Origin: a virus
IMG/VR virus record: IMGVR_UViG_3300045988_111035
Length of the DNA: 61,812 nucleotides
Reading direction: 5' to 3' (one strand)
The notes under the pieces were generated by a model. That model saw only the letters and a list, made by a program, of their open reading frames with translations. It was not told the origin of the DNA and ran no database searches. Both the position numbers and the translations under genes were made by a program. Positions 1 through 61,812 of this stretch are shown in pieces. Each line of letters opens with the position of its first letter. Position 1 is the stretch's first letter.

Positions 1-50
1 ATATTGGTAACGGACTTGTCGGCTATCTTTTCCGTAGTTACCGAATTGTC
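1..50. repeat. Terminal 50-bp direct repeat, copy 1 (circular-assembly overlap)
   Basis: Bases 1-50 are identical to 61763-61812. A minus-strand ORF is in frame across the join. Confidence 0.9.
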
Positions 51-674
51 TGCCAACTTGATATTGGTGATACTGCCATCAGCAATTTTCTCAGAAGTAA
101 TAGCACCATTCTTTATCTGGTTGGTCTCTAGTTGGTCTGTCTTATTGACTTTCTTATTAAGTTCTTCTTTAACATCCTCCTCGTTGGCTTTTTTATTGAG
201 TTCAGAAGTCAAAATTTTCTGGCTAATGACCTTGTTTAGATTTTCTCCAAACTCCTGTGCCACTTCCAAAAGTATATGGCTTCTCCATAACTTTCCGTCT
301 TCCGTGTACAACACACTGATTCCCCATGGAATCAGGATGCTTCCGAAATTTACGTAAGTACCATTTTCCGTGGCAAAGTAAAACATTCTATCGCAAGCTG
401 TGCTAGGAACAGTATCAGGATGTGCCAATCCAAAATACGAGCCACCGAAGGCGTTAAATTTTTCTACGATACCAGCAATAACCTCATCCCAATAGGAGTC
501 ACGTCTGGCATTCACACACCATGTACCTCGGTCTGCATTCCAATAATGCGCCCAACCGTTAATTTCCACAAAGTCACCTTCAACACCACCTGTTGGGAAC
601 TTTTTGTTCACCTCATAGATGTTTCCGAACGTGCCCTTATAGTGCTCGCTATTCTTGTCTATATCATTTGCCAT
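1..674 (-). CDS. Tail fibre-like protein, N-terminal part; the ORF leaves the left edge and resumes at 61762
   Basis: ATG at 674..672. The reverse-complement translation is MANDIDKNSEHYKGTF...ITSEKIADGSITNIKLADNSVTTEKIADKSVTNI. 674 nt plus 385 nt (61378..61762) gives 1059 nt, which is 353 codons in frame. The plus-strand ORFs 4..357 and 420..683 are antisense to it. Confidence 0.8.
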   Translation of the reverse strand, partial: MANDIDKNSEHYKGTFGNIYEVNKKFPTGGVEGDFVEINGWAHYWNADRGTWCVNARRDSYWDEVIAGIVEKFNAFGGSYFGLAHPDTVPSTACDRMFYFATENGTYVNFGSILIPWGISVLYTEDGKLWRSHILLEVAQEFGENLNKVISQKILTSELNKKANEEDVKEELNKKVNKTDQLETNQIKNGAITSEKIADGSITNIKLADNSVTTEKIADKSVTN

Positions 675-4818: not shown

Positions 4819-5298
4819 ATGCGTACATTATATATTACCATACTCCTCATCGCCTTGATGGCTCTCGCCATTCCGTTGCACGACAAGTTGGCGGTATCGC
4901 CGACCACACCGACATACACCCACCTCGTCTATATGTTCGGGCACGCTGGCTTCATCCATTGGGCGGTCAACTCATGGTGCATCCTCATGCTTCACCACCA
5001 GTTCAAGCCCCACCGTGTCATTGCCTCATGGCTAGGCTCGGTCGTGCTCTCCTTCCTATATTACCCATCGCTGCCAGTCTTGGGTGCGTCCGTCATAATT
5101 TCATTCTTCATGGGGATTACCTCGCCATGGCTCTACAGGTACAAGCGTCTTGCCTTCTGGCAGATGGTCGTGCTCCTTGCCATCGGCTGCGTCCTGCCGC
5201 ACATAGCTGGCACTTACCACCTCGTCCTCTTCGCCTTCGGTTTTCTCTACGCCAAGGTGGAGAGTTTCATCCATCACGCCAACAACCTAAAGATATAG
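4819..5298 (+). CDS. Rhomboid-family intramembrane serine protease-like protein (compact 6-TM core)
   Basis: FGHAGFIHWAVNSW matches the GlpG TM2 pattern H-x4-H-x3-N. LGASVII matches GxSx (catalytic Ser) and LPHIAG matches the AHxxG catalytic His helix. About six hydrophobic segments are present. Confidence 0.65.
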   Translation: MRTLYITILLIALMALAIPLHDKLAVSPTTPTYTHLVYMFGHAGFIHWAVNSWCILMLHHQFKPHRVIASWLGSVVLSFLYYPSLPVLGASVIISFFMGITSPWLYRYKRLAFWQMVVLLAIGCVLPHIAGTYHLVLFAFGFLYAKVESFIHHANNLKI

Positions 5299-13900: not shown

Positions 13901-16900
13901 TGATATGAATGTGCCCCTTGGCGAACACGCCTGTACTATTCAAGTCGAAAGCCAAGTCACGGATTCTTCTCGGTGCTTCTATTATATAAGGTATAGCCTC
14001 AGCGAGTGCATCTGCCTTAGAAGACTTCCCCTTATATTCCGAATAGAGCTTGTCGAAGACACCGCTTCCTGCCATGCCCTCGATGCGTCTCTTGATGTCG
14101 TTGATGTAGATGGCATCGTCGGCACTCGCCTCCTCCATGTTCTTTCGTCGGTGGATGACGGCATGTTTCACGGTTCGGGCTGCGCCTTCCTTGCTCACGT
14201 CCGTACTCGTCACCTCCGCCATGGCATCCATCACCCTCTTGTCAAGGTCTGCCGCCTCTGGTGAGGTCTCGGCTGGATATACCTTTCCCTCGTAAAGGTC
14301 TAGGTCGGCGGTCTCCTGCTCGTTCAGCTCATGTCGGGTCAGCCAATCCTCATAGCGTTGGGTTGCCTCCACTTGCTTCTGCTTCTCCCATGCGAACATG
14401 TCTGGCATAGGGTCTTCCTTGTCGTTGATGGCGTTCTGCCATTTCTCATATTCCTTGTAACGTGGGAAGAAGGATTCATCGCTCTCTCCTTCCTCTCGTT
14501 TTGGCAACGAAGGCATATCGTCGCCGACAAGTCCATGACGGTCACGCCAGTCCTTGTTGAGCTGTTCCCATTCCTTCTTGCCCTCCACGTCCTTGTCTAT
14601 GTCATAGAACTGAGGTGGCTCTGGGTCGTTGGTGTCCTCTCGGGCATCCTTCCACCGCTGCCACTCACGCACACGCTTCATGTATTGGATAGGACTCTCA
14701 CCCTTCTTCATGCGTGGTTTGCCACTGCCCTTGTCACTGAGCGCATTCTTGATGTCATCGCCTGTGGCTTGGCGCATGATGGCATCTTGCTTGTCCTTAG
14801 ACATGTTATCCCAAACGTGCAGAGCCTTCCCTGCCTTCATCAGGTAATAGCGCAAGTCCTTGTCGTTGAGAAGACCAGGAACACGGATTCCCAACTTCTT
14901 CAACGCCTTGATGAGATAGTGCTTCATCTTAGTCCAAAGGGTGAAGTCCTTTGCCGTCTTAGGGCCATCCTCCGCCAAGTGGGCGATGTATTCCTGGGTT
15001 GCCTCGTTGAGACGGTCGGCATTCTTCCATTCAGGGTCGTACTTGTTGGCGAAGTCGAGAATTTTGCCACGTGTGTCACCATCCACCGATTTATACACAA
15101 AGTTGGCGAAGTCTCTCACACCTTGCTCACCACCTAGAAGCACCTCCATGCCCTCGTGTCCCACCTTCTCATGGAAGACGGTGCGCTGCGCATCGTTGGC
15201 ATCCTCACAGTTAGGGAGATAGACATGAACGGTGTGGTTGCTTGGGTCGTACCATCCCTTTGCGCCACGTTCCACGTCCGCACGATACTCCTCAGGAACA
15301 CTCTCCACGGAAGCATAAACGTTAGCCTCAGCACCTCCAAGAGTGTTGGCTACATTCTTCACCACATCTAGTGTGTCCTTGCCGATAACAGAGCCATTGT
15401 TTCTCATGCCGTCGCCCAAGCGTGCCTTGGTCTTCTTTGCTTTCTTGCCATACACCTTGGAATAGTGAGTACCTGCATGTTCCCCTTCAAGAAGAACACC
15501 CTTGTTGTCGGTCTCGACAAAAGGAACGCCAAGTTTCTCCAACTCTTTTCTGAGACTTGGAGTTACCACGTTGGAAGGCATGATAACCTTTTTGTCCTTA
15601 AACATGTCGTTCACAATAACATCAGCTACCTCACTGTCAGGCACGATACGCACAGGTTTATCCCAACGAGAGAGAATCAGCTTACGTTTGCCTGTCAACT
15701 GTCCTTGGATAATACCTGCCTTCCACTCGACTTCACCCACAGCATCCTTGGCTTTGTCAGCCTTGTAACCACTGGTGAGCTCGCTCTTTGGCACCTCAAC
15801 CTCTACAGTTACAATGTTTGGACGATTCTGAGCCTCGCTAAACTGGTCATTCAGTGGGGTACGAGAAGTATGAAGGTAAGGATTGTAAGCAGCCTTTAGT
15901 GACTTACCGTTACCCTTGTTTAGGGTAAACATACCCTTATCGTCAGCAAGTTCTGGTCGCTCGTCTGCCTGTTCCCATTTACCAAGTTCGATAGGCTGCA
16001 CAAACTTGCCCTTCACCTTTGCAGCCATCGGTGGATAGAGTTTTCCATCATCACCAAGTTGCATGGCACGATACACTTTTACAGTGTCCTCATTATCAAG
16101 TTTCTTGATGGTCTTAGGGTCAGTCACAACTGAATAGCTGGCACCGCCTCCATCCATGACAATCTGGTCGCCTCTATCCACATCCTCTGTATCAGATGCC
16201 AATGAGTTTCTTCGTTCCTCGTCTGTCATGCCCATACGAGACATAACGTTTCGAGCCTCAACCTCTCCTGCAAGATTATAATAAAGTTCGTCATCAGAAA
16301 GATTCTTCAAGGCATCTTTCAGTTTGTTATTGATACCCAAGGCATCTTTGTTCCCCTTCGGAATCGAGTTCCAAACTTCGTCTGCCAAACGGTTGAGTTC
16401 ATTGATTGCCTCATCCACGTGATAGCCAGTTTCGGCAATTTGCTTGGCATTCAAGTCACTAAGTTGGTCATAGTCATTTACCAACTTCGAGTTTTCTTCA
16501 CCGTCCAATAGGTTCATGGCATCCCAATAGTACTCAATAGCCTTATCCTTAATGAAAGGATTGTCACTATTGATTAGCCCCTTGAACTTACCCAAATTCA
16601 ATGCTGTTTTTTTGAAGTCAACCCATGTCTTCATCTTTTGTAGGGCATAATCCGCATACTCAGAGTTTTCATCAATGATTTTCTGAATCCTCTTACGGAC
16701 ATCATTTGAGTTTCCACCCTTGGCAAAACCCTCGATATATTGGATTGCATGCTGCACTTCATGTGCAAGAACCTTTTTACCATAATCGTTCAATGAAATT
16801 TGTGTACCAAGGAACTTCACACCTTTTTCTAGAGGGATTGCATTTAATAGACGCACGACCTTAGCAACTTTCGGCATATCTTTCTCTATTTTATTAAAGA

Positions 16901-19900
16901 GTTCATCTGCCTTTAACTCATCCTCGGTATATCCACCAAACTGATCTATAGCATCATCCGCCCAACTTTTTGTATCATCAGGAAAGGAAGCACACGCATC
17001 CATAAATTTCTTTTTAGCAACCTCGATGTCCTTGAAATTAGATGGCTTAGAATATTTCTTCTCCACGGTAAACATATCCGTTCTTAACGCAATGTTATTG
17101 TGGAGATTATCATACATTCCTTGCAAATCCGTTTTCCCCACCATCTGAACATCAACGTTCTTTAGAGATGGATAAGCATCAAACAGCCCTTTATCATCAA
17201 TGAGGTCAGACAACTTACACAAAGGTTCGTTGTAAGGAGCATAAGGACCTACATGAACAATATTTATATCTTTATCTACAGTTATTGGCTTCTCTGATTT
17301 AAAATCAGGGATTTCATATCTCCATTTTCCATCAGCACCACGTTCCCAACCTGTTGCAAACTTTATGACTTTTGGTGTTAGAGCATTATTTTCCATCGCT
17401 TTTGCTACTTGCAGGTTATCCATGCGGATGGTTTGCTCCTCTGCCTTGTCAGCCTCAGCAGCTCCCTTCTCACCTGCAAACATGAAGCGAATGCCCTCAG
17501 AGTTATTGATGGCATCCATCGTAACCTTTTCACGTTCTTCCTTCCCATCATAAGTATGCACATCAATGCCAGCCTTCTTCAAGGCATCCACCACGTCCTT
17601 AGGAGTGTCCTTTGGCACAATAGCCTTCTCAAATTCATCAAGACCATAAGGACGCATGAACTTGGTCTCGAAATAGATGGAAGGCTTCTCATTCTTGACA
17701 GCATCAATCAATTCATTCAACTTGTCGATGTCCTCGTCAGTCAAGTCCACACCATACTCATCCTTAGCATATTTCTTTGGATTCTTCTGTGTGGCAGCCT
17801 CTTCCAATCTATCCATGCCATAGCTTTCAAATGGACCAGCATCAGGTTGCATCTTATCAGCCAACTCATCATAGACAGGTTGCCATTTTTCTTGGAACTT
17901 CTCAACGTCCTCATAGTTGTCGGTCAAATTGCCCTTCTTCTTGCGAATTTGGTCAAGAGTCCCCATAGGTTTCAATATGGATGCTACGAAATGACTGAAA
18001 GAAGCCGAACCAACGGAAGCATTCTTGCCATCTTGTTTCATTACCTTCACAGCATTCTCCACAGTGTTAGGCAGATACTTACGATTGCCATCTGGCTTAT
18101 ATCCAGCAAAGATAACCTCCTCCACATTATAGCGGTCATTAAGTTTTTCTTTCCATGAATCGAAGTCTTCCTTCATACTATTGTCCTGAATGTATTGTTG
18201 TGCAGCTTTCATCGTTGCATTCTCGTCCACCTTACCAGAAGTCTCTGCATCACGCAGTATGCCATCAACGAAACGAGACAAAGCCCCATAGTCATAGCCA
18301 TGTTCCTTCATCCAATCAACATCAAGTTGTTTGTTCTTGGCAATATTGGAGTTTGGTCTTTTTTTGATAAACTCCTCATCCTTCTTGATGAAGTTCTTGA
18401 TGTCATTGTCAAACTCCTCCCGATTACCATCATATACCTCACGAATGAACAAATCAAGAAGCTTTTCCTTCTGTTCATCAGTAGTTGAATAGATACTATC
18501 CAATTTTCCCAAGATGCCTTTCACCTCATCATGGAGTTCCTTTGGATATTTACCTTCCACATGCACCAACTCAGGAGCTTTTCCTTTCTCATGCAAATAG
18601 AGATAAGCCAAGCTGTTTGTATCACGACCATCCATGAAGCTGTTGATGGCATTTCTTGTGAGACTTTGCATTTCCTTTGGAACAGACTCGATGTCAATGT
18701 AAGCCACATCACTACCATTTCCGCCAAACTTTTTCTCTACAGGTGGATAGATAGGAGTCCACGCATCAGCAGCATAAGTACCGATGTTCTTGCCTGTTCT
18801 CTTGGCTATCTTTTCTGCCTTCGGTATCAGTGTAATCTCACCAAAGCCCGAATATATTCCGTTTTTGGAGTCTATTACACCCATGGAAGGAGCAGCAAAG
18901 CCACCTTGCTTGATAGCTTTGCGTAGCTTGTCAAGGCTGATGTTGTGCATACCAAACATGGTTTTGTCCGCATCCCTTGAAGCCTTAGCAGCCTTGGCAG
19001 CCTCTCGTGGGTCAATGCCATCGAGCAAGTCCTTCATCACACGGTCTGCTACCTCCTCAGCTGTGGTGAAGTGGATGTGAAGGAAGTCGGCAACCTTCTT
19101 CCAGAACTTGGCAAGAACCTTCTTCAACCGTTGAAGGGCATAGAGTGCCTTCGCCTTCTCCGTGACGCTACCATCACCGTCGAGGATGGCATCATACTCC
19201 TCACGGATTCGCTCCGCACCTCTCTTGCCTGAATATTGGGCAAGTACCTCGTCGGCGATGTCGCTGTCAGTCTCCAAGTGAGGATATTCCCTCCTCACCT
19301 TATCCCACACAGGCTTCAAGCCCTTCATGAGGTTCACGATGTTCTCCCACTCCTTAGAATTGCCAGAACGCACCGCCTCAGCCCACAAGTGGGCATATTC
19401 ATGGATAGGAGTTTCACTGTTCGCAATACGAGGGTCGATGTAAATCTTGCCATCTACGGTGTAACCGTATGCCTCACCGTTAGGAGTGCGGAAAAACTTC
19501 ACATGATTCTTTATCTGCATATCCTCTGGCTTGAAGATGACATAGTTAGTGTCACCTTCCTCTGCACCGCTACCATGATATACTCGCTGTTCACGAATGT
19601 AGTTGGCATTCACCTCCTGCTTCTCAGCAAGTCCAGTCGTGTCCTTGAACTCACCACTATACAGTGCTTGCTTGATAGAATTAGCGATGTCTGCCAAAGG
19701 TTTGCCCTCAGCCTTGCGCAACTTAATGGCATTATAGTAGAACTCAACGATATGAGCATCACCATCATTGGTAATACCTTTGTTGTCCTTATTGGTAACA
19801 ACGACACTGATAGCATCTGATTGTCCGTTTGTGTCTAGGTTGGAGACGGTTGCGTTATGGTCGCTGACACGGACAGTTACCACATTGCCATTCTTACACT

Positions 19901-22900
19901 CAAACGTGGCATACTTGCTAGACTTATCTTTCATGTCTATGCCAAGAGCGTCTGCCATTTCTCCTATGAAAGTTTTCGGCTGAGTTGGAGAGTTTTCTAA
20001 ATTCTTGACAAGACTATCAAGATTTTTTAGTATCTTTGCACCGTCAGCACTTGAAATGGCAGTTAATGACCTTGGATTTGCTCCAAGCGAGGCGGTTTCA
20101 AGTGCTCTCTTTTTCTTGGCACTCATTCTTACACCGTTCTCCATTTCAATCACTCTCTGCCCTTCTTCCACGTCGGTAATCACGTCCATGCCGCCCTCAC
20201 GTAATTTGTCGATGACGGCATCACGCAACACCTCTTCCTGACGTGTTGGTTTCAAGGCAGAGCTGCCCTTCTGATAACGCTCATCGGACTTGCGAGAGTT
20301 GAAACGTTGAGACAAAGGAATGACATTTCCCTTGTCATCGTATGTGACGGCATCAAGTAACTTTCGGTTGTTCTTGGTGTTCTTATAGGCAAAATCGGTG
20401 TCATTGGCATAGTCCTCTTCACGACCATAGCCCCATTCAGCTATATCGTTACCATCCCACCATATTTCATCAACAGGAACTTTCTGTTCAATAATATTGA
20501 AGTTATCACCCCAACCATGAACCTTAGCATTATCAACCGCATAAGCACGACTTGGAGTAACCCAATCACCATTTCTGAAAGAACCTTCCTTAACATCAGA
20601 AGGAACACTTCTATACATGGTAATAGTCTCACTCTTCTTCTGGATAGCGTTACGCACGTTATCAATAGCCTCCTTGCGCATAGGGTCAGCTGCACGATAA
20701 TTACGAGGGTCTAATGCTATGAAATCGAGATTCATCGCATCTATACCACGATGGATATAATCACCCAAAGTTTGGTCTCCGTCATATTCATCATTATCCC
20801 ACGCCTCCTTGCGCTCTTCCTTGGTCAAGAAGTAGCCATTGCCCCAAGGTGCAGAACCATTGAAGGCAGAAGTGCCCTGATAGCTGGAATCGGTAGAATA
20901 GCCAGCAGCCTCGGCAGCTTCATTCACCATTTTCTGAGCCTTTTCCATGTCGCCACGATTAACCGCATCAAGGTAATCTGCATCAAGCTGAGCCTGTTCG
21001 TCTGATACCTTGCTGAACCTAATCCTAGGATGTTGGTTCTCGTTCTCCTTGATTACCGCCTTGATGATAGCCGCCTCGTTAGGAGAAAGGATGATTTCTC
21101 CCTTCTCGTATGCGTTCCACAACGGCACACCACTCTTGTAGTCTTCCAACAAGGTTTCTATCATGTCACGCTCCGCCGTGGTAGAGCCATAACGATTCTT
21201 GCCGATAGTCCAAACCACGTCGTGACTTTCAGCATGTTTCTTTACTCTACCCCTGTATTTCTCTGGCTCACCAGTGGCATTCCACTTCTCACCCTTGATG
21301 ATTGAAGCCGCCTTGGGCTTCACCTCGCTCTTCACCATGGCATAGTTGGCAAACGGCTTTGTCTTGCGGTCTGAGGATTGCAGCCACTTGTCGAAGGTAG
21401 CCTTAGGCACGGAAGTAACCTCACCAAGACCTTTCCATCCTGGAGAATAGTTCTGCAAGTAAGCGTTCTTGGCATCCTCCTCGGAAGGATAGCCATACAT
21501 CACCTTGTGCTCGTCAAACTCGCCAGTCTGAGGATTCACTTGGTCGATGACGAACACGTTGCCGTCGAACGTGTCAAGGTCGGCGGCATCGTTGATGAAC
21601 ATGTCGATGTGGTCGCCATCAACACCTATCTTGCCAAGGACATAGCCATACGTGTCGTGCATGGTCACGCTCCAAGGCTTGCCACTCTCGTCCTTTCCGC
21701 TTCGGGTTACGCCCTTAGGTGTCTCCACCGTGAAATCATAGCCACCAAACTTCAAGTGACCTTTCTTGTAGTTGCCAGCCTTCTTCTGCGCCTCAGTAGG
21801 CTCAGTTTCCGTCTCGGCAATGGCGTTCTTTAGACGTTCTCCGAAGGATGCTTCTTGCGGTAGATGTGAAGTTCTATCAACTGTGCCTTCGCTAGATTCC
21901 ACGCTGCCAGTCTCTGGTCGCCTTTCGCTGACTTGATTAGATGTTGTTTCAGGCGAGGACTTATCAGAAACTTCTCGTCTGCCAGCTTCTTCGCCTTGGC
22001 TACTTCCTTCAACAACTCCTCTCCGTGCAGTGTCGCTATCCAGTCCACCGCCTCCTGCATTCTCTGCTTCTGTTCTTCTGTCATCATACTCTGATAGTTC
22101 TGGTAATATTGATTTTACGTAATCTTTATATTGATTCTCACGCTCCTGCTCAAACATGATTTGGTCATATTCCATACCATAGATGTTGTTCAGTTCGCTT
22201 TCAGATGGCAAAGATACTGCTTTATCTTGAATAAACGAATCAAACGCCTCTATTTCTGCCTGTCTTTCGTTAATTTCACGGTCTTTCTGAGCCTCATAAT
22301 ACTCTTCCTCAGTAGAAAGCTCGTTTTCCGCCTGTGCGATTCGATTAATCAAGGCGACATTCATCATGTCCTTCACGCTGTCGTATGTCTTGAACATATC
22401 AAGAAGTGCATTGCGAACATCTTGGTCAGTATAACCCATATTCTCCAAGTTTGGAGGAAGGTTCTCCCAAACACGCTTTGAAATGCTGGCTACAGTCTCA
22501 CCCTCGCCTTTCTTGGCCAAAAGATAATTGAACTTGTTGGAGTCATATCCCTTGCCTATGCCATACTTGAAGCTGTCCTTTCCAAGTTCCTGCTGCAAGG
22601 ATTCCGCATTGATGCCATGAACAGGAAGACGCTCGGATATGGCTTCTTCCAATGTCTGAGGTGTCAGGTCGGTAACATCAGTTGGAGCATCCTTGTAAAT
22701 TTGGGCGATGGCATTCATATCTCCCTTTGCCAAAGCCTTCTTGACTTGCTCACGTCTTTGCTCTGATGGGGTCATGCCTAAGTTTGACATTTCCGCCGCA
22801 TCAAGTTCATCCTTATAAAGCCTATTCAACTTGCTTGCTTGCGCCTTCAATTCCTTGGCAGAGTCGGTCAAGCCTTGCTGACGTGCCTCCAACTGAGCCT

Positions 22901-25900
22901 TGGTGGTGTTTATTTCCTTGATTTGCTCTGGCTCCAGCTCTATCTCACCGTTCTTGTATTGTTCCAACACATCCTTTATCCCATCTATCTGAGGTTGAAC
23001 CTCGTTGGATTGCAAGTCGTAGATACGCTTTCGCTCAGAGGCAATATGGTTGCTAGCCTCATCCAAAGTAGGATATTGCTTCTTCAATTCGTCATTTGAC
23101 AAAACAGAGACCTCACGCTCATCGGAAGGAGCGATGGCACTTTCATCCACACCAACGTCCTTGATTGTCTTGGTGCGCTCATCCTTCATCGCCCTGATTT
23201 CATCGGGAGTCATCACGGAATTGCGGATAGTGTTCCAATTTTTGTAGCGAGTGGAAAGGTCATCCATCTGCTCTTTCACAAGGTTCAGCTCGTCTGTCAC
23301 CTTCTGAGCCTTCGATGGGTCTAGGTCGGCATTGGTGTCAAGCCAGTCCTCGTACTCGGCTGCTTGCTTTCTCTTGTTGTCAAGTTGCTCCTTGATGTCG
23401 GCACGACTACCATTGATAAGGCTCAACAGTTTCCCATGATCCTCGCCATACTCGTCCTGCAAGTACTCAGCCACCACCTTAGGGTCTGACTCCTTGGATG
23501 AATAGTCCATCTTGCCGTCCTCATATCCCACGATTCCATCAGCGAAACGTTGTTTCTTCTCGGTCTCAGCCTTGGCAACGGCATCGTTCTCACGCTGCAC
23601 CTCCTCTGCGTCAAGTTCGGCATTGATGGACGCTTGCATGGCGTTGTTGCGCATTTGTGCGAACTCCTCCTTTGTGAGTGCTATTTGGTCTTTGCCATCG
23701 GAAAGCACAATACGCCCATCTTGGGTATATCCTGCAAACGACATGGAAATAGAGTCAGTTCCTGACTCCATGGCTATCTCCACGGTTTGCCCTGGTTGCA
23801 AGTTGCTTCCGTCAAACATGGAAGTGAACTTCTGGACAGTTGCAGCATGATTCTGCTCCGCCAGTTGGTTCACATAGTCTTGGAAAGGAATTGGGTTGCC
23901 TATTTCCTTGATTTCAGATGTATGTATCTGCCTAATCGTAGGTTGACCATTCTCGTCGGTGGTGGTTACGAAAGTGCCTCCATACTCGTTAGCCTTCTTC
24001 AAGAATGCCGTCGTACCATCCAAAAGGGTAACAGGAACAATGTTTCCGTCTTCGGTGGCGTATGGCCAAAGCTGCTCTGTCATAGCCTCGGCATAGCCAT
24101 CATCGGCGTGGTCAATACCATAGAGCACACCTTGCTTGGCTTGATGTGCGTCGGCATACTTGCGTATGGCATCACGCTGCACCTCATTGAGCATGTTGGC
24201 TTTCTGGGCGATAAACTGCTCCATGTCCTTACCTTCATCAATAGCATTGTATATCGTCTGTAGCAAGGTCTCGTTCCCCTTGAAGGCACGCTGCAACCTA
24301 GCCTCAGCCACATCGTCGGCATGGTATATTGCCGTCAAGGTCTCGCTATCTACATTGGCAACCGCATCCTGACCACGCTTGTACGCATCACTGACGGAAG
24401 GAGTTTCACCACCTACTGATGAAGAAGGTGGGGTTGGAGGTGTTGGCGGAGTCGTTGTAGGCTCTGTAGGAGGAACACCACTTGCTACCTCTTGGCTATT
24501 TTCGGCTATATTGCGGACATTTTCGGCTATTTTTTGACCGTTTTCTTCCACTGGAGTTGTTTGAGGTGTCGTTTCTGTTGGATTTTCTCCTTCTGCTGTA
24601 ACACCGCTTTTCCCGATTTGCTTCTGCCCTTCGCTATGAGACTGGCGGTAAAGGTCATCCACCGTCTGTTTCATTTCACGTTTCAGTACGATGTCGTTAT
24701 AGAGCTGCTTCTGGTATGCCTCAACAAGTTTCTGCTGCTTCTCGGTGCGTTTCTTGCCATCACCTTCCAAAGCCTCACGAAGTGTCCCATGTGGCACGCC
24801 TTGCGAATCCTCGAAGGTGCGCACATAGTCACGCATGATGCTGCTATTCTCGAAGGCACTGTCATAGAAGTGGCGATAGCCATTCAGAAGTTGTTGCTCC
24901 TGCTCGGTCAACTCCATACCACTCTGCTGCTTTTGCATGATGTCACCTATTGCATTGGCATTCTGGTGCAAGTAGATGGCTGCTTTGTCCTCGTCGGTCA
25001 AACCTTCGCCCATACCATATTTCTCCCTTGCCTTGGCATAGACATCATCCAAGTGCTCCTGCAAGGCATCGGTATGGTAGGCGTTTTCGTAAGCGGAAGT
25101 GAGATTGAGAGACTTTTCGTAGTCAAGGCTTTTCTCAGCCTTCTTGGCTTCATCGTATGAGGAGAATGATTTGCGGTCGATAATTCCACCGTCCTTGTTC
25201 AACGTCTCCAGATACACCTTGCCGTCCATCGGTTGCACGATGATGCTGTCTATGACTGGCGAGAAGGACTGAGGACGCTTGCCCTCGACCACCGCCATCA
25301 TCTTTGCCTTCAACACCTCAGGAACGGATTTGTCGCTCATCAAGTCCATGTACTTCTTAGTGAGTTGTCCCATCAATTCAGCATCACCATTGATACTGTT
25401 GCCGTTGATGCCCAAATCCTCGAAGGCGGTGCGTAGGTCATCGTAGCCGAATCGTCTCAACTGGGCTAAGTCCTCATCGTTGAAGTCATATTTGCGGTTG
25501 AACTCCCTCGCATCCTTGAAATGTGCGTACTTGCCCATCATGCCAGGAAGACCGATTGCCGTGAGGTTTGCCATGCTTTCCAAGAAACTCTCGGCGGCAT
25601 CCTTGCCTGTTGGCTTGAAATTAGGGTCTTGCGCCATGTGCTCAATCAACGCCTGACCTGTCATGATGCTGGAGTCAACGGCTTTCCCACCCACGTCTGC
25701 GAGAATGTTGGCTGCAAGACCTCTTCCCTTGCCTATCATGTTGGCAAGAGTGCCACCTGGCATGATAGTGCCAAGTGCAGCTCCCTTGGTCACCTCTCCT
25801 ATTGTTTTGGCGAGAACCTTTTCAACCGATGTATGGTATGGCTTTCCGTTCTCGTCAAACTGACCGTCACGGTAAACCTCATTGATAGGCGTGGAAATGG

Positions 25901-27698
25901 CAGACTGACCACCAAACGTTACCGCTCCATGGGCTGCCCCAGTCTTCAACGCCGTGGTCTTGCTTCTTCCGACGAGCATCTTGGCGGCACGCTCAGCCAT
26001 CTTGCGCTCCATGCCCTTTGCCATCAAGTCACCTGCAAGCTTGCCCTCAGCCTTGGCAATCATACTCTTGGTAATCTTGCCTCCTGCCGCACCTGGTAGC
26101 CAATAACTCCAAGCGTCACCTGCGAAGGTAAGAGCACCGCTAGCCACGTTCTCCCAAAATCCAGGCTGATACTGTTGGTTGGCCATGTCCTCCAACCAAT
26201 TCTGATAATCGGTCTGCATCAGTTTGCGTGACACCTTGCCAACGATAGTATTGCCCAAGCCAGTCTTCATGATGTACTCGAAACTGTTATGAGGAATGAG
26301 CTTCTTCATTTCCAAACGGTCAAGTTCTCCCTTGATAGAGGCGTTGAGCATAGGTTTCACGTATGTCTTGACAAAATCATCTATCTTGTCATAACTATAG
26401 CCACGTTTGTCCATCACCTTGACCAACGCCAAGGTGAAATCAGGGTCATCCACGATACCGCTCAACTGCTTGGTAAGCAAGTTGAGAACCTTCTGAGGGT
26501 CACGCATCTTGTTGTACTCACCCATAGCCGTTGCAGTCTGAGGTGAAGCCGCATCTACAGAATAGAATCCACTATAGGTGTCGTTGTACTTCTGTAAATA
26601 GCTGTTTGCCTCTGCCTCAGCCTTATTGATGGCATCAGCTACTGGTTGCTTGATGAATTGGTTGATGATGGACGCTGCATCATTGTAGTTGTCATTTTGC
26701 TCTAGCTGGCTATCCACATCACCCTCATGAGCATAAAGGCGTGTGGCAACGTCCTCGGCTATCTTTCGGTAGTTGCTGCCATACTTCTCCACAAGGCTCT
26801 CCACCATGGCTGGCTTCACGAAGTGGGCAATGTAGTCATCATAGCTGATACCCATGCGTGTAGCCTCGTCCTTCAAGTTGTCCTGCACGTCGTGGCTATA
26901 CCACTGGGAGTTTATGACATCACCCACATTGCCCGAATTGTCGGCGTTCAATGAGGAGACAAACTGATTGGTGGTCTGCTTCGCCAAGATGTCAGCCGTG
27001 CCAAACAAACCTTGCTTAGCCATTTCGATGGCTTCTTCTGGCGTTTTCGCCCTGCCATCAGCCAACAAGTCGGATGCGGTCTGCTGCAAGGCATCCACGT
27101 CACCGCCTTGGCTGAGATAGTTGCCATACTTGGCTACGATGTCGTTGGACGTATCGTTTGTCACCACGTCTGGCTTCACTTGTTGTGTTGGTGTCGCAAC
27201 CTCTTCCTGCTGATTTCCTTCCACAACCGACTGAGGAATGGAAGGAGAAGGTTGTAATGTTCCGTTGCTGGTCTGCACGCCCTTCGGAATCATTCCCATG
27301 GCTTGCGAAATGAGACCGATCTTTCCCTCCTCTGAGGATGGTTGCTCCACTTGATTGGTGGCAACAGGTGCGTTAACTGGCTTCTGTTGCACCGTTTGCT
27401 GTTGGGTTGGCAGTGTCTGAGGTTGCTGACCGCTAGCCACTGGTTGCCCACTCGTTGGAACGGAAGTAGAAGAAGGAGCTGCTTGCGAGGTGGAACTGGA
27501 AGGAGTAGGCTCCAACACCATATTGTCGAAGTCCTGCGAACTTCCCACATCGTAACCCATGCTCTTGGCTTCGTTATAGTACCAGTCACGGTCTTCCTTG
27601 TTATTCAAGTCTTTCTTGAAGTCATCATAGCTGCCTACTTGGTAGCCGTTCTTTTTGAACTCCTCATAGAAATACTTTCTGTCTTGCTCGTCATACAT
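10908..27698 (-). CDS. Giant polyvalent-type virion/ejection protein (5,596 aa)
   Basis: A single uninterrupted 16.8-kb ORF. It has a Gly-rich hydrophobic N-terminal region, an inorganic-pyrophosphatase-like segment, an R-S-E ART-like segment, two HExxH zincin motifs and a C-terminal hydrophobic/coiled-coil region. All other ORFs in this span are antisense or off-frame. Confidence 0.85.
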   Translation of the reverse strand: MYDEQDRKYFYEEFKKNGYQVGSYDDFKKDLNNKEDRDWYYNEAKSMGYDVGSSQDFDNMVLEPTPSSSTSQAAPSSTSVPTSGQPVASGQQPQTLPTQQQTVQQKPVNAPVATNQVEQPSSEEGKIGLISQAMGMIPKGVQTSNGTLQPSPSIPQSVVEGNQQEEVATPTQQVKPDVVTNDTSNDIVAKYGNYLSQGGDVDALQQTASDLLADGRAKTPEEAIEMAKQGLFGTADILAKQTTNQFVSSLNADNSGNVGDVINSQWYSHDVQDNLKDEATRMGISYDDYIAHFVKPAMVESLVEKYGSNYRKIAEDVATRLYAHEGDVDSQLEQNDNYNDAASIINQFIKQPVADAINKAEAEANSYLQKYNDTYSGFYSVDAASPQTATAMGEYNKMRDPQKVLNLLTKQLSGIVDDPDFTLALVKVMDKRGYSYDKIDDFVKTYVKPMLNASIKGELDRLEMKKLIPHNSFEYIMKTGLGNTIVGKVSRKLMQTDYQNWLEDMANQQYQPGFWENVASGALTFAGDAWSYWLPGAAGGKITKSMIAKAEGKLAGDLMAKGMERKMAERAAKMLVGRSKTTALKTGAAHGAVTFGGQSAISTPINEVYRDGQFDENGKPYHTSVEKVLAKTIGEVTKGAALGTIMPGGTLANMIGKGRGLAANILADVGGKAVDSSIMTGQALIEHMAQDPNFKPTGKDAAESFLESMANLTAIGLPGMMGKYAHFKDAREFNRKYDFNDEDLAQLRRFGYDDLRTAFEDLGINGNSINGDAELMGQLTKKYMDLMSDKSVPEVLKAKMMAVVEGKRPQSFSPVIDSIIVQPMDGKVYLETLNKDGGIIDRKSFSSYDEAKKAEKSLDYEKSLNLTSAYENAYHTDALQEHLDDVYAKAREKYGMGEGLTDEDKAAIYLHQNANAIGDIMQKQQSGMELTEQEQQLLNGYRHFYDSAFENSSIMRDYVRTFEDSQGVPHGTLREALEGDGKKRTEKQQKLVEAYQKQLYNDIVLKREMKQTVDDLYRQSHSEGQKQIGKSGVTAEGENPTETTPQTTPVEENGQKIAENVRNIAENSQEVASGVPPTEPTTTPPTPPTPPSSSVGGETPSVSDAYKRGQDAVANVDSETLTAIYHADDVAEARLQRAFKGNETLLQTIYNAIDEGKDMEQFIAQKANMLNEVQRDAIRKYADAHQAKQGVLYGIDHADDGYAEAMTEQLWPYATEDGNIVPVTLLDGTTAFLKKANEYGGTFVTTTDENGQPTIRQIHTSEIKEIGNPIPFQDYVNQLAEQNHAATVQKFTSMFDGSNLQPGQTVEIAMESGTDSISMSFAGYTQDGRIVLSDGKDQIALTKEEFAQMRNNAMQASINAELDAEEVQRENDAVAKAETEKKQRFADGIVGYEDGKMDYSSKESDPKVVAEYLQDEYGEDHGKLLSLINGSRADIKEQLDNKRKQAAEYEDWLDTNADLDPSKAQKVTDELNLVKEQMDDLSTRYKNWNTIRNSVMTPDEIRAMKDERTKTIKDVGVDESAIAPSDEREVSVLSNDELKKQYPTLDEASNHIASERKRIYDLQSNEVQPQIDGIKDVLEQYKNGEIELEPEQIKEINTTKAQLEARQQGLTDSAKELKAQASKLNRLYKDELDAAEMSNLGMTPSEQRREQVKKALAKGDMNAIAQIYKDAPTDVTDLTPQTLEEAISERLPVHGINAESLQQELGKDSFKYGIGKGYDSNKFNYLLAKKGEGETVASISKRVWENLPPNLENMGYTDQDVRNALLDMFKTYDSVKDMMNVALINRIAQAENELSTEEEYYEAQKDREINERQAEIEAFDSFIQDKAVSLPSESELNNIYGMEYDQIMFEQERENQYKDYVKSILPELSEYDDRRTEAENAGGGGLDSDTARRGVVEGSSQGEEAGRREVSDKSSPETTSNQVSERRPETGSVESSEGTVDRTSHLPQEASFGERLKNAIAETETEPTEAQKKAGNYKKGHLKFGGYDFTVETPKGVTRSGKDESGKPWSVTMHDTYGYVLGKIGVDGDHIDMFINDAADLDTFDGNVFVIDQVNPQTGEFDEHKVMYGYPSEEDAKNAYLQNYSPGWKGLGEVTSVPKATFDKWLQSSDRKTKPFANYAMVKSEVKPKAASIIKGEKWNATGEPEKYRGRVKKHAESHDVVWTIGKNRYGSTTAERDMIETLLEDYKSGVPLWNAYEKGEIILSPNEAAIIKAVIKENENQHPRIRFSKVSDEQAQLDADYLDAVNRGDMEKAQKMVNEAAEAAGYSTDSSYQGTSAFNGSAPWGNGYFLTKEERKEAWDNDEYDGDQTLGDYIHRGIDAMNLDFIALDPRNYRAADPMRKEAIDNVRNAIQKKSETITMYRSVPSDVKEGSFRNGDWVTPSRAYAVDNAKVHGWGDNFNIIEQKVPVDEIWWDGNDIAEWGYGREEDYANDTDFAYKNTKNNRKLLDAVTYDDKGNVIPLSQRFNSRKSDERYQKGSSALKPTRQEEVLRDAVIDKLREGGMDVITDVEEGQRVIEMENGVRMSAKKKRALETASLGANPRSLTAISSADGAKILKNLDSLVKNLENSPTQPKTFIGEMADALGIDMKDKSSKYATFECKNGNVVTVRVSDHNATVSNLDTNGQSDAISVVVTNKDNKGITNDGDAHIVEFYYNAIKLRKAEGKPLADIANSIKQALYSGEFKDTTGLAEKQEVNANYIREQRVYHGSGAEEGDTNYVIFKPEDMQIKNHVKFFRTPNGEAYGYTVDGKIYIDPRIANSETPIHEYAHLWAEAVRSGNSKEWENIVNLMKGLKPVWDKVRREYPHLETDSDIADEVLAQYSGKRGAERIREEYDAILDGDGSVTEKAKALYALQRLKKVLAKFWKKVADFLHIHFTTAEEVADRVMKDLLDGIDPREAAKAAKASRDADKTMFGMHNISLDKLRKAIKQGGFAAPSMGVIDSKNGIYSGFGEITLIPKAEKIAKRTGKNIGTYAADAWTPIYPPVEKKFGGNGSDVAYIDIESVPKEMQSLTRNAINSFMDGRDTNSLAYLYLHEKGKAPELVHVEGKYPKELHDEVKGILGKLDSIYSTTDEQKEKLLDLFIREVYDGNREEFDNDIKNFIKKDEEFIKKRPNSNIAKNKQLDVDWMKEHGYDYGALSRFVDGILRDAETSGKVDENATMKAAQQYIQDNSMKEDFDSWKEKLNDRYNVEEVIFAGYKPDGNRKYLPNTVENAVKVMKQDGKNASVGSASFSHFVASILKPMGTLDQIRKKKGNLTDNYEDVEKFQEKWQPVYDELADKMQPDAGPFESYGMDRLEEAATQKNPKKYAKDEYGVDLTDEDIDKLNELIDAVKNEKPSIYFETKFMRPYGLDEFEKAIVPKDTPKDVVDALKKAGIDVHTYDGKEEREKVTMDAINNSEGIRFMFAGEKGAAEADKAEEQTIRMDNLQVAKAMENNALTPKVIKFATGWERGADGKWRYEIPDFKSEKPITVDKDINIVHVGPYAPYNEPLCKLSDLIDDKGLFDAYPSLKNVDVQMVGKTDLQGMYDNLHNNIALRTDMFTVEKKYSKPSNFKDIEVAKKKFMDACASFPDDTKSWADDAIDQFGGYTEDELKADELFNKIEKDMPKVAKVVRLLNAIPLEKGVKFLGTQISLNDYGKKVLAHEVQHAIQYIEGFAKGGNSNDVRKRIQKIIDENSEYADYALQKMKTWVDFKKTALNLGKFKGLINSDNPFIKDKAIEYYWDAMNLLDGEENSKLVNDYDQLSDLNAKQIAETGYHVDEAINELNRLADEVWNSIPKGNKDALGINNKLKDALKNLSDDELYYNLAGEVEARNVMSRMGMTDEERRNSLASDTEDVDRGDQIVMDGGGASYSVVTDPKTIKKLDNEDTVKVYRAMQLGDDGKLYPPMAAKVKGKFVQPIELGKWEQADERPELADDKGMFTLNKGNGKSLKAAYNPYLHTSRTPLNDQFSEAQNRPNIVTVEVEVPKSELTSGYKADKAKDAVGEVEWKAGIIQGQLTGKRKLILSRWDKPVRIVPDSEVADVIVNDMFKDKKVIMPSNVVTPSLRKELEKLGVPFVETDNKGVLLEGEHAGTHYSKVYGKKAKKTKARLGDGMRNNGSVIGKDTLDVVKNVANTLGGAEANVYASVESVPEEYRADVERGAKGWYDPSNHTVHVYLPNCEDANDAQRTVFHEKVGHEGMEVLLGGEQGVRDFANFVYKSVDGDTRGKILDFANKYDPEWKNADRLNEATQEYIAHLAEDGPKTAKDFTLWTKMKHYLIKALKKLGIRVPGLLNDKDLRYYLMKAGKALHVWDNMSKDKQDAIMRQATGDDIKNALSDKGSGKPRMKKGESPIQYMKRVREWQRWKDAREDTNDPEPPQFYDIDKDVEGKKEWEQLNKDWRDRHGLVGDDMPSLPKREEGESDESFFPRYKEYEKWQNAINDKEDPMPDMFAWEKQKQVEATQRYEDWLTRHELNEQETADLDLYEGKVYPAETSPEAADLDKRVMDAMAEVTSTDVSKEGAARTVKHAVIHRRKNMEEASADDAIYINDIKRRIEGMAGSGVFDKLYSEYKGKSSKADALAEAIPYIIEAPRRIRDLAFDLNSTGVFAKGHIHITPKDVRDIQPYIDDFEELIGRFHYKTVKKGGEEKLVPEYDDVHAVSEQASKIANAINENHKLDVGFVPLDGTDILTDQVKPLIAHTRIVPKGIEYENLSEEMKSTLDAIHDWYNYTYDWLKDNHTLREDTGFTADYVNHIWDKEKSNPEAYKMYVENRQRTKSPNEKPRTISTLMEGINLGLVPKTTDITKMMAYYSRSNIEAWANKTMLQEVSGLNVVERDENGDIISSDPILSSVAPFNLEQYKYFEVPGIGPVWVYNVSPKQVKVKNPITGKEYVLYSEKSAADRFGVVFDTYESSPFWRAFDTAASSAKKIELGFSGFHAGALTEVYMVQNLIEFGPKKAMANFMKYIFIDTMRTHQLPCFANPEDFQEAASHLVKFGATNDYAAADVQNMFDNWRGFAQKLQQKLGERGKIGTAVGAATIPFEVATQMVSMLNKGMDVALWDFLHDGLKLATYRMRADRTKERAKKYGWTGEQLSKALDEDGQFVNDMFGGQHWDVLGASHRTLKIAGRCLLSPDWNASTTRHFLALTGFGSIWNEATLDSFKNYYNHVWAAARKKEALPPEYFGRKQRQVSALICYLIGFGFYEAFANGINTAFRAMDEEKENEKAKEIRKTNPSYKSPYELAYPDGMKWYDYLMRGNTAGQQSKIFAGRYADGTEMYVRHGKQFREVPEYLFNSKGELEFPGPMVQRMLGKANPMARMVLDDINYLSDFQASHADQEIQRKYGKTIGLLYKDALYWAPFLIPSQENKEFKAVDFFFPSSKGFSNWKAQDYFKNFILSGDMEGVFLTYQSCQRNGLDAEKQLQAAISSIKALESKEMQDGVTSLQIATQRFDEAKSVTEKRKMREKMRKFLSQSEYKAFTWQEAKDMVDAYQQGEDIKDLTKADDKYLMVADSKDVTEDWRIQSVKSSTKQYADRLAELRESDPGKAQSFRETYARIFKARQAISRATSKMNRLKKKLGGKEDKELLRQIRSTRQQLLKDLNGMEHVRKLE

Positions 27699-33033: not shown

Positions 33034-33378
33034 CTACAAACTAAATATTAAGAAAAGAACCCCCAAAATTAATACAGCAATATTTGCAAAAGCAAGATAT
33101 AGCCAATATCCGACAGTCCTTTTATCATTTGTTTTTATATGCTCCCCAATAATGCCTCCTATGCTTCCACCTACAAAAAGAGACAAGATTAAGCTTAGAT
33201 TCCAACTTAGTATAATACTAAGGGCATCATTCATTTTAGCTAGGAAAGATAAATAATAACAAAAACAAAGTTGAATCAAGAAAGCCCCTACGATTTGGCT
33301 ATCCCTGTTCTTTATATGACATGCTGCTATAACAGCATATATAAAAGAAATTATTGTCAGTACTATAAATGTTTCCAT
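33034..33378 (-). CDS. Four-TM membrane protein (moron)
   Basis: 114 aa, almost entirely hydrophobic helices, starting 10 nt after the repressor stop codon. Confidence 0.6.
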   Translation of the reverse strand: METFIVLTIISFIYAVIAACHIKNRDSQIVGAFLIQLCFCYYLSFLAKMNDALSIILSWNLSLILSLFVGGSIGGIIGEHIKTNDKRTVGYWLYLAFANIAVLILGVLFLIFSL

Positions 33379-36677: not shown

Positions 36678-37934
36678 ATGAATCACGCAAGTTTATTCAG
36701 CGGAATCGGTGGGGCTGAGGTAGCCGCATCTTGGATGGGATGGCACAACGCCTTCCACTGCGAGATACAGGAGTTTCCCCGAAAGGTCCTGGAATACTGG
36801 TTCCCAAACTCAGAAAGTTATGAAGACATTACCAAAACAGACTTCACAAAGTGGCACGGCAAGGTCGATGTTCTCACAGGAGGATTCCCCTGCCAACCTT
36901 TCTCCCTCGCTGGTCGAAGAAAGGGAGCGGACGATAACCGCTACCTCTGGCCGCACATGCTTCGGGCGATTCGGGAAATTCAGCCCACTTGGGTCGTTGG
37001 TGAGAACGTTGCTGGAATCAAGACGATGGTGGAGTCCTGCCAAGTCGCTAAGTTGGGGCGTTCAGACGATATATTCGAGGAGAATCACATATACCGAGAG
37101 GAAAGCAAGTTCACACTCGACAAAATCTGCCAAGACCTTGAAGAAGCTGGATATTCCGTCCAACCGCTTGTTATTCCAGCTTGTGCCGTCGGAGCACCGC
37201 ACAGAAGAGACAGGGTTTGGATTGTTGCCCACCGTGCAGACGCAAGGGCTGAAACAATGCAACAAGGACGGCAAGACGGAGTTCATGCCGCTAGACCTTC
37301 TGCCGACTCCCAATGCAATGGACTTTCCACACAAGGGAATGGAAATCAACGAGAAGGGAAGAAGGAATCCCAAGAAGGGCAAGACAGACCACAGCCTAGG
37401 TCTAGAAGACATGGCAGTGGCACAACTCCTTCCTACGCCCACGGCACTCGACAAAGGAGGAGGAAGAATAAACAAGAGCCTTTCACCGAATGCAGCAGAA
37501 CGCCCAACCTTGGCACTCGCCGCTCGAAAAGGCTTGCTTCCCACTCCTACAGCAATGGAAGCCACGAAGTTCACCAAGACCATCAATCCCAATTCCCAGA
37601 TGGGGCAAGGACTAACAGCCTTGGCGGTCAACGGTCTTCTCCTCATTCCAAGTGCAACAGATGGTCTCAGAAGTACAATGACAATGGATTCTTTGAAGAG
37701 CCACAACAAGGAGAATGCCAACCTAGCGGAGCAGATAGCCCACAAAGTAGGTGGCGGAACTTCCCAACTCAATCCCCTGTTTGTAGAGGAAATGATGGGA
37801 TTCCCTTTGATGTGGACAGCCTTACCATTTCTTTCCCCAAGTGGCGACAAGAATCCATAAAGGCATACGGCAACGCATGGGTGCCACAAGTGGCATACGA
37901 GATATTCCGTGCCATAGAGGAAATATCCCTCTAA
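36678..37934 (+). CDS. DNA (cytosine-5)-methyltransferase, frame 0
   Basis: Motif I is LFSGIGG. Motif IV is GGFPCQPFS (PCQ at 36888..36896). Motif VI is GENV (37002..37010). Motif VIII is APHRRDRVWIVA. Motif X is YGNAWVPQVAYEIF. The middle ~190 codons are R/Q/S/G/H-rich low complexity. Confidence 0.9.
   Translation: MNHASLFSGIGGAEVAASWMGWHNAFHCEIQEFPRKVLEYWFPNSESYEDITKTDFTKWHGKVDVLTGGFPCQPFSLAGRRKGADDNRYLWPHMLRAIREIQPTWVVGENVAGIKTMVESCQVAKLGRSDDIFEENHIYREESKFTLDKICQDLEEAGYSVQPLVIPACAVGAPHRRDRVWIVAHRADARAETMQQGRQDGVHAARPSADSQCNGLSTQGNGNQREGKKESQEGQDRPQPRSRRHGSGTTPSYAHGTRQRRRKNKQEPFTECSRTPNLGTRRSKRLASHSYSNGSHEVHQDHQSQFPDGARTNSLGGQRSSPHSKCNRWSQKYNDNGFFEEPQQGECQPSGADSPQSRWRNFPTQSPVCRGNDGIPFDVDSLTISFPKWRQESIKAYGNAWVPQVAYEIFRAIEEISL
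36820..37860 (+). CDS. Overlapping +1-frame ORF (346 codons) with LLPTPxAxD repeats and an MGFPxxW motif
   Basis: Five spaced repeats: LLPTVQTQG (37222), LLPTPNAMD (37297), LLPTPTALD (37426), LLPTPTAME (37534) and LLLIPSATDG (37636). NPLFVEEMMGFPLMWT also occurs, with MMGFPLMWT at 37792..37818. Internal ATGs lie at 36820 and 36868. Confidence 0.5.
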   Translation: MKTLPKQTSQSGTARSMFSQEDSPANLSPSLVEERERTITATSGRTCFGRFGKFSPLGSLVRTLLESRRWWSPAKSLSWGVQTIYSRRITYTERKASSHSTKSAKTLKKLDIPSNRLLFQLVPSEHRTEETGFGLLPTVQTQGLKQCNKDGKTEFMPLDLLPTPNAMDFPHKGMEINEKGRRNPKKGKTDHSLGLEDMAVAQLLPTPTALDKGGGRINKSLSPNAAERPTLALAARKGLLPTPTAMEATKFTKTINPNSQMGQGLTALAVNGLLLIPSATDGLRSTMTMDSLKSHNKENANLAEQIAHKVGGGTSQLNPLFVEEMMGFPLMWTALPFLSPSGDKNP

Positions 37935-57687: not shown

Positions 57688-57935
57688 TACTGTTCTTCAT
57701 GTTTAACTTATACAATGTTATTATTACGAATGACGCAAACGTACAAAATTATTCATTATCATGCAAGTATTCTGCAAAATTATAGCGTTAAACTATACTA
57801 ACAGTTACAATTTATCACAAAATGGGGGGGTAAATTTTGGTTATTCTTACAATCTGAAAGTAAAATCACAGACAAAACCAATATGCAAAGAGGTGACAAT
57901 GAAACAAAATCCACCATCACCTCATATCCTTTCCA

Positions 57936-58538
57936 TCATATCCACTTAATAACGGTATTACCTTGATACTCCTTATTCCATACAAACCACGCATAACTTA
58001 CTGCGCTTCCTCCACCATCCTTCATCCTCTGAAACTCTCCGTTCTTCGCACAGAGCACCCTTCTGGAAAATTGCAGAACATAATGAGGCGGATTCTTGCT
58101 GAACAGCTCATCATATCTCTTCTGTCCTTCCAAAAAGGTGGTCTTTAGAAACATGATGCAAAGACCATTTTCTGGAAGAAGGTCTAGACTATGCTTGATG
58201 AAGTCCAGGGCATACTTGTATGGCGGATTGGTAAGGATGCAAGTACACCCATTTGGCATTTCCTCTGTTTTCAAGAAGTCTCTTATCCCCCCATATCCCC
58301 TGTTTACAAGGTCGGTGGATATTACTTCATGCCCGAAGTGTTTCAGTCGCTCCGACAAGCAACCTGTGCCACAAGCGCACTCCCATATCTTGTGAGGAAG
58401 TGACATGACACCTACCAACTTGTCTATGGCTATAGGGTCGGTAGCGTAAAAGTCATTGCTCTAACGCTCCTTGTCCGTGTGGTTGGATGCTCCCAACGTC
58501 ACGAACATACTCTTTCCGTTTCCAGTCCAATCTTTCAT
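57936..58538 (-). pseudogene. N6-adenine DNA methyltransferase (NPPY) with an in-frame TAG at 58463..58461
   Basis: The ATG is at 58538. The translation is MKDWTGNGKSMFVTLGASNHTDKER*SNDFYATDPIAIDKLVGV.. and then IWECACGTG (SAM site) and TNPPYKY. The 25 codons upstream of the stop match the conserved N-terminus of this phage MTase family (from memory). Confidence 0.75.
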
Positions 58539-61762: not shown

Positions 61763-61812
61763 ATATTGGTAACGGACTTGTCGGCTATCTTTTCCGTAGT
61801 TACCGAATTGTC
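61763..61812. repeat. Terminal 50-bp direct repeat, copy 2 (circular-assembly overlap)
   Basis: Exact copy of bases 1-50. Confidence 0.9.

Follow-up and report, generated by a model that had tools for sequence, protein, structure and literature searches.

An amber codon, very probably a recent private mutation, interrupts the adenine methyltransferase gene of a phage genome

Phages of Staphylococcus, Listeria, Rhizobium, Aeromonas and Vibrio as well as rV5-like phages of Escherichia carry proteins that are annotated in the phage collection as DNA or N6-adenine methyltransferases. Members of PHROG 799, such as the enzymes of Staphylococcus phage SEP9, Listeria phage LMTA-94/LMSP-25, Rhizobium phage 16-3 and the rV5-like Escherichia phages, are 27–41% identical to the protein described here over nearly its full length, and they share with it the motifs R-E-x-N-D-F/Y-Y-A-T-P, E-x-x-C-G-x-G and TNPPY/F. 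The order in which such motifs are arranged, i.e. an N-terminal motif X followed by a glycine loop and NPPY, is that of the gamma-type amino-methyltransferases.

For a gene of this kind that contains a stop codon, several known systems can serve as points of comparison. Some gut phages of Bacteroidota, crAss-like ones among them, decode TAG as Gln, and the likeness to the present case lies in an in-frame TAG within a conserved gene and in a Bacteroidota-type host. Amber alleles of non-essential phage genes are another: here, one base change creates an early UAG and no product is made in hosts without a suppressor, with the genome otherwise untouched. Finally, bacteria are known to possess SSR phase-variable methyltransferases (mod/phasevarions), among them the poly-G type IIG enzyme of Campylobacter (PMC4889913).

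Here, we describe a phage methyltransferase gene that is interrupted by an amber codon. The gene lies on the minus strand of IMG/VR virus record IMGVR_UViG_3300045988_111035, the 61,812 nucleotides of which are referred to as the window throughout. We consider it very probable that the stop is real, that it is a derived, recent and strain-private GAG (Glu26) to TAG transversion read under the standard code, and that it leaves the phage with an effectively null accessory methyltransferase.

The window is a complete circular assembly of ~61.76 kb, as follows from an exact 50-nt overlap of its termini (1..50 = 61763..61812) together with relatives that read across the junction of its ends. Its source is a human-gut phage that is probably associated with Segatella/Prevotella; a Segatella copri MAG includes one of the sister contigs. 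The capsid protein shows an SU10_MCP domain in relatives, and the nearest cultured relatives by this protein are the Bacteroides phages BF1-TP2, BKO1-TP3 and BS-TP4 (31–37% identity). A single ORF of 5596 codons (10908..27698, minus strand) takes up 27% of the genome. Its Pfam domains, InPase (E 6e-50), a PBECR5 nuclease (E 6e-16) and LPD23, mark its product as a 'large polyvalent protein', a kind linked to phage–host conflict. Likewise on the minus strand, the gene across the 61812/1 junction differs in length among near-identical relatives (119, 294, 352 and 527 aa; L003, L004 and L005 around 5578–7161), and one of these, L005, holds at least four tandem copies, with a 60-nt period, of a segment matching window positions 1..68. 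Repeat copy-number variation is thereby seen in a probable structural or tail gene adjoining a fibre-like protein.

The methyltransferase ORF runs from the ATG at 58538..58536 to the TGA at 57938..57936, as read from the sequence and its translation (Table 1). It opens with MKDWTGNGKSMFVTLGASNHTDKER and meets TAG as codon 26 at 58463..58461 (minus strand). Past this stop, the frame remains open for 174 codons, SNDFYATDPIAIDKLVGVMSLPHKIWECACGTG...TNPPY...IKWI, passing through CACGTG and NPPY before it ends, which brings the interrupted frame to 200 sense-equivalent codons in all. An earlier note on this DNA, made from the letters alone, had described this arrangement of an ORF from the ATG at 58538 that is broken by a TAG and then continues into the catalytic domain, and both this description and the internal in-frame starts that it listed, a TTG at 58418 and the ATG of Met45 at 58406, are borne out. 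The note had also likened the 25 codons before the TAG to the conserved N-terminus of the family. Indeed, the closest homologues in the alignment share all 25, and the read-through product matches public 200-aa proteins at 90% identity over its full length (E 7.5e-123). On the strength of these alignments, the stop lies within one gene and does not mark two separate ORFs that happen to adjoin in frame.

Table 1. Coordinates of the interrupted methyltransferase gene, its parts and related features in the window
Feature	Position	Strand	Basis
Full N6-adenine DNA methyltransferase frame, 200 codons + TGA, broken at codon 26	57936..58538	-	translation; PHROG 799; 90% identity to 200-aa homologues
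Amber codon TAG, codon 26; very probably from GAG (Glu) via one G->T transversion	58461..58463	-	37 GAG contigs with identical flanks; L010
25 codons 5' of the stop (MKDWTGNGKSMFVTLGASNHTDKER); sole product expected from the normal start	58464..58538	-	identical in intact alleles
Codons 29-35, DFYATDP, conserved N-terminal motif, motif-X-like; would be lost on Met45 restart	58434..58454	-	homologue conservation; model
Residual ORF from ATG Met45, 156 aa; alternative TTG start at 58418	57936..58406	-	reported by gene callers (P0122)
Codons 52-59, WECACGTG, AdoMet-binding motif-I-like glycine loop	58362..58385	-	E53, A55, C56, G57, G59 invariant
Codons 104-107, NPPY, catalytic motif IV of amino-methyltransferases	58218..58229	-	invariant in alignments
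G6 run (GGA TAT GGG GGG ATA), in frame in the window	58287..58292	-	same place as sister G7 tract
Intact C5-cytosine DNA methyltransferase, GFPCQPFS motif	36678..37934	+	PF00145, E 9e-41
Intergenic region, 248 nt, 3' of the methyltransferase gene; two TAATTTTG matches	57688..57935	-	sequence

With the stop masked, the 200-aa product is assigned to PHROG 799 'DNA methyltransferase' over residues 2–200 (E 3.6e-64). A protein search returned 7960 homologues at E<=1e-5, the best of which are 200-aa proteins of 90% identity at 100% coverage, and 562 phage records match the methyltransferase by tblastn. Both TNPPY (codons 103–107) and ECACGTG (codons 53–59) are invariant in the alignments. Searches of Pfam and NCBIfam gave no family at cut-off for the methyltransferase: Pfam Eco57I (PF07669) reached 17.3 bits (E 0.0053) over residues 112–150 only, below its gathering threshold of 25.3 bits. 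Similarly, a PDB sequence search returned nothing significant, and blastn of the locus against the phage collection gave no match, leaving protein-level relatives only in that collection. Among the cultured phages, the Flavobacterium phages FpV9-1.3 and FPSV-S20B (H49/H50) match the methyltransferase in its first 89 residues only, at 58% identity, which is far above any other match in the cultured-phage collection; they may represent a domain-swapped or split relative.

The link to gamma-class N6-adenine enzymes comes from fold comparison, for which an AlphaFold2 model of P0001, a 90%-identical homologue, was used (mean pLDDT 84, pTM 0.84). The model's closest Foldseek matches are the solved gamma-class structures of M.BseCI, M.TaqI and CamA (E 2e-8 to 1e-7, TM 0.5–0.6 on the query), which display the same motif order, and the fold as modelled is that of a class-I methyltransferase nearest to N6-adenine DNA methyltransferases. 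In the phage protein, DFYATDP at the N-terminus is followed by the ECACGTG glycine loop and then by TNPPY. Judged by its position and by the similarity to gamma-class folds (e.g. M.TaqI), the N-terminal segment would be the counterpart of motif X together with the helix that opens the AdoMet-binding domain.

The homologues also indicate what stood at the position of the stop. In 133 fetched homologues, the codon 26 column reads Glu in 128 cases (Gln 2, Ala 2, Asp 1), and alignments of the closest 25 and 45 homologues place Glu in the TAG column and flag it as nearly invariant. The exact 200-aa protein of the window with Glu26 (P0121) is present on six contigs from other samples; the same protein with Gln26 was not found in the public collection that holds the Glu26 version. 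At the nucleotide level, 1/603 nt separates contig L010 from the window gene, namely the first base of codon 26 (G for T), and contigs L008, L009 and L011 differ in 2 nt, i.e. this base and one synonymous site. A 38-mer around codon 26 with the first codon base left free was then scanned in IMG/VR, JGI/ENA metagenome contigs and GTDB genomes, yielding 38 contigs with identical flanks, 37 with GAG and one (L007) with TAG. The TAG-specific 38-mer itself had no match in JGI metagenome contigs and none in IMG/VR.

Together, the 37 sister contigs with GAG, the one-base difference to L010 and the occurrence of the Glu26 protein elsewhere argue that the stop is derived and private. The substitution is G to T on the coding strand, which corresponds to C to A at plus-strand position 58463. 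By this comparison, the TAG is neither a conserved feature nor the product of a CAG-to-TAG transition; the latter, which would have replaced Gln, had been proposed in the earlier note, but the homologous residue is Glu (GAG) and the change a transversion. Of the explanations offered there, that of a nonsense-mutated pseudogene is the one supported by the GAG contigs and the Glu26 protein. Values of dN/dS between the window allele and divergent alleles are low (0.05–0.07), showing that purifying selection normally acts strongly on the gene. As there is no additional decay of the gene 3' of the stop, the nonsense mutation appears to be recent.

A change that is confined to a single base and a single sample lineage could also be a sequencing or consensus error, in which case the phage would truly carry GAG and its methyltransferase would be intact; the presence of GAG in every other contig and the lack of the TAG 38-mer from the JGI metagenome collection would fit this explanation. 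Yet, contig L007, which stems from the Logan assembly of run SRR1761720 (contig SRR1761720_2782), matches the window in 6471/6471 nt, the T among them. Reproduction of the T by a second, different assembler makes an assembler artefact unlikely, with the qualification that the window and the Logan assembly may share one read set, so their agreement speaks to assembly and not to systematic read error. Against the latter, the amber site lies outside any homopolymer, and the ~20 kb that can be compared with near-identical relatives (98–99.9% identity) contain no second disrupted gene, all other genes being intact and of the same length. An error at this base is thus improbable.

If the TAG is genuine, it might still be decoded as an amino acid, be it through reassignment, a suppressor tRNA or programmed read-through, so that a full-length enzyme would be made. 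The precedent of TAG-to-Gln recoding in some Bacteroidota gut phages, Gln at the codon 26 column of 2/133 homologues and an A directly after the stop, which in E. coli favours suppression, can all be cited for this explanation. However, TAG behaves as an ordinary terminator in this genome. The 69 greedy ORFs (table 11) that cover 93% of the window end with TAA in 33, TGA in 20 and TAG in 16 cases, and genes are closely packed behind these TAG stops. Two of them, at 5296..5298 and at the end of the portal gene (8138..8136), had been named as genuine stops in the earlier note, and both do end long ORFs. Its observation that no suppressor tRNA gene is present likewise holds, with ARAGORN detecting neither tRNA nor tmRNA genes anywhere in the window. 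In addition, the ancestral residue is Glu rather than Gln, and the stop is missing from the 37 sister contigs, as expected of a new mutation and not of a conserved recoding site. Standard code without recoding of TAG is the conclusion to be drawn from these observations.

The distribution of in-frame stops leads to the same view. A scan for single stops between long open frames gave mostly noise out of non-coding frames; within it, the methyltransferase was the only homology-supported gene split by TAG, with no other long gene interrupted in this way. The 5596-codon ORF is free of in-frame stops, whether TAG, TAA or TGA. Suppression or recoding, which the earlier note had kept as an option, is accordingly left without support and is exceedingly improbable as the source of a full-length enzyme. 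Rare near-cognate read-through could nevertheless yield some active enzyme, as Gln occurs naturally at this position in two homologues. Elsewhere in the genome, a TAG at 33034..33036 (minus strand) separates same-frame neighbouring ORFs of 114 and 208 aa, with the TAG plus one more codon between them. Neither ORF has a Pfam or PHROG match and chance alone puts one in three neighbouring gene pairs in a common frame, so the pair is likely a chance adjacency and offers no evidence for read-through.

Under the standard code, ribosomes that start at the ATG at 58538 would terminate after 25 codons, and those restarting at TTG41 or Met45 would make a product of 156–160 aa without the invariant N-terminal R-E-x-N-D-F-Y-A-T-P segment. 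In its R-E-x-N-D-F/Y-Y-A-T-P form, this segment is still encoded, but its E codon is the TAG, and neither product contains it: that from the ATG at 58538 stops before the segment and that from Met45 begins after it. A truncated yet active methyltransferase made from the internal TTG (58418) or ATG (58406), as also considered in the earlier note, could draw on these in-frame starts 15 and 19 codons past the stop and on a residual 156 aa that retain motif I (CACGTG) and NPPY; gene callers do annotate the 156-aa ORF. The homologues speak against it. Not one of the 133 fetched starts there (0/133), their lengths cluster at 199–203 aa, and N-terminally short forms are absent from this set except for P0122, which is the window's own. 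Moreover, four phage homologues of 37–41% identity (SEP9, LMTA-94, 16-3 and a GBS phage) use the upstream start and keep R25, D29, Y31, A32 and T33, all of which would be lost on restart, and where distant tblastn matches span most of the query, their alignments start within query residues 1–25. Alignment to homologues, the check suggested along with the truncation option, therefore reveals an upstream segment that is kept and no start at the downstream Met.

The P0001 model adds a structural argument. Residues 31–44 form a confident strand and helix just ahead of beta-1, and a restart would also remove the modelled helix 35–44 that packs there; residues 1–30, Glu26 included, are of low confidence. 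An active enzyme from an internal start is hence very unlikely. Given that the product of a Met45 restart would lack an N-terminal segment kept by every homologue, the TAG allele is most likely null.

Loss of the enzyme should be tolerated by the phage because the methyltransferase would be dispensable for replication, its presumed role being to protect phage DNA from host restriction. A second methyltransferase, predicted to act on C5 of cytosine, would still be available; the phage encodes two orphan methyltransferases, and only the adenine one is broken. Consequences for the neighbouring gene appear equally limited. TAnnTTTG is the known -7 promoter consensus of Bacteroidota, and TAATTTTG matches to it are found at 57775..57782 and 57744..57751 within the 248-nt spacer. 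The next gene thus probably has its own putative promoter and the nonsense codon need not be polar, so that no polar effect on this gene would be expected.

While the window's gene is disrupted by a base substitution, a different kind of change is seen in a sister allele class of ~81% nucleotide identity (L012–L027, L032–L048). Alleles of this class contain an intragenic G7 tract at codons 83–85 (GGC TAT GGG GGG GCA), which among 20 distinct gene haplotypes is present as G7 in 15, G8 in three and G6 in two. Lengths other than G7 shift the frame with no compensating change, and one haplotype was seen in both a G6 and a G7 version; going by their names, several of these contigs are covered 30–110x. 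This pattern suggests recurrent, slippage-driven on/off switching of the methyltransferase or, alternatively, homopolymer miscalls in the assemblies. In the allele class of the window, the tract is interrupted, with G6 followed by A (58287..58292), and G6 is found in 8/8 contigs with no length variation.

These observations raise the question as to whether the knockout in the window is itself adaptive, i.e. a loss of m6A modification that was selected, for example, by methylation-dependent (type IV) restriction in the host. The frameshifts in 5/20 sister haplotypes, the haplotype with both tract lengths, the coverage of some of these contigs and the otherwise strong purifying selection, which fits on/off use better than decay, are in favour of such selection. 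On the other hand, the window's own G6+A class is invariant in eight contigs, homopolymer lengths in assemblies can be wrong and a single nonsense allele cannot separate drift from selection. We therefore regard an adaptive origin of the knockout as rather unlikely. Equally tentative is the broader proposal that Segatella/Prevotella phages repeatedly switch an orphan adenine methyltransferase of their own on and off under selection, via poly-G in the sisters (at least five haplotype backgrounds) and via nonsense in this lineage, with the amber codon as one such case. Should it be true, the phage population would hedge between hosts with methylation-sensitive and those with methylation-dependent restriction, providing a phage counterpart of the bacterial phase-variable methyltransferases. 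A literature search on phage-borne phase-variable methyltransferases returned bacterial examples only (e.g. PMC4889913) and none for Prevotella/Bacteroides phages or Bacteroidota orphan enzymes.

A further difference between alleles concerns the L001–L006 allele, where 54/57 gene differences to the window fall into one 147-nt block (58248..58394, minus strand; gene nt 145–291). The block comprises codons 49–97, from motif I through the poly-G site, and the flanking DNA is 99–99.9% identical. It looks like a recombined cassette in the AdoMet-binding half of the enzyme.

Overall, the finding is an ordinary knockout of an accessory phage gene. For annotation, the locus is best labelled as a disrupted adenine methyltransferase gene with a nonsense codon at position 26, and neither as a 156-aa hypothetical protein nor as part of a stop-codon-recoded genome. 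At the same time, it provides two naturally occurring phage genotypes with methyltransferase genes one base apart, one intact and one presumably null, and this pair could be used to identify the target motif of the enzyme and its value against host restriction. Wider interest attaches only to the repeated inactivation through changes in poly-G length in the sister phages.

Compared to the systems described above, the locus combines familiar elements in its own way. Unlike the other PHROG 799 enzymes, the copy in the window is broken at codon 26, and unlike M.TaqI, M.BseCI and CamA, to which its identity is 14–19%, the phage protein is 200 aa long and without their large C-terminal DNA-recognition domain. 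Recoded gut phages differ in that here there is one such TAG, which replaces Glu and is missing from the sister genomes, and in that TAG is a frequent true terminator in a genome with no suppressor tRNA. In contrast to laboratory amber alleles, this one comes from a metagenome and not from a selection experiment, and no suppressor host is known or implied. As for SSR phase-variable methyltransferases such as the type IIG enzyme of Campylobacter (PMC4889913), the likeness resides in the sister G7 tract, which varies by +/-1 and shifts the frame. Yet, this tract is short (7 G), its variation is known between contigs, the gene sits in a phage genome and lacks a restriction partner, and the window allele is off by base substitution, a change with no high-frequency reversion.
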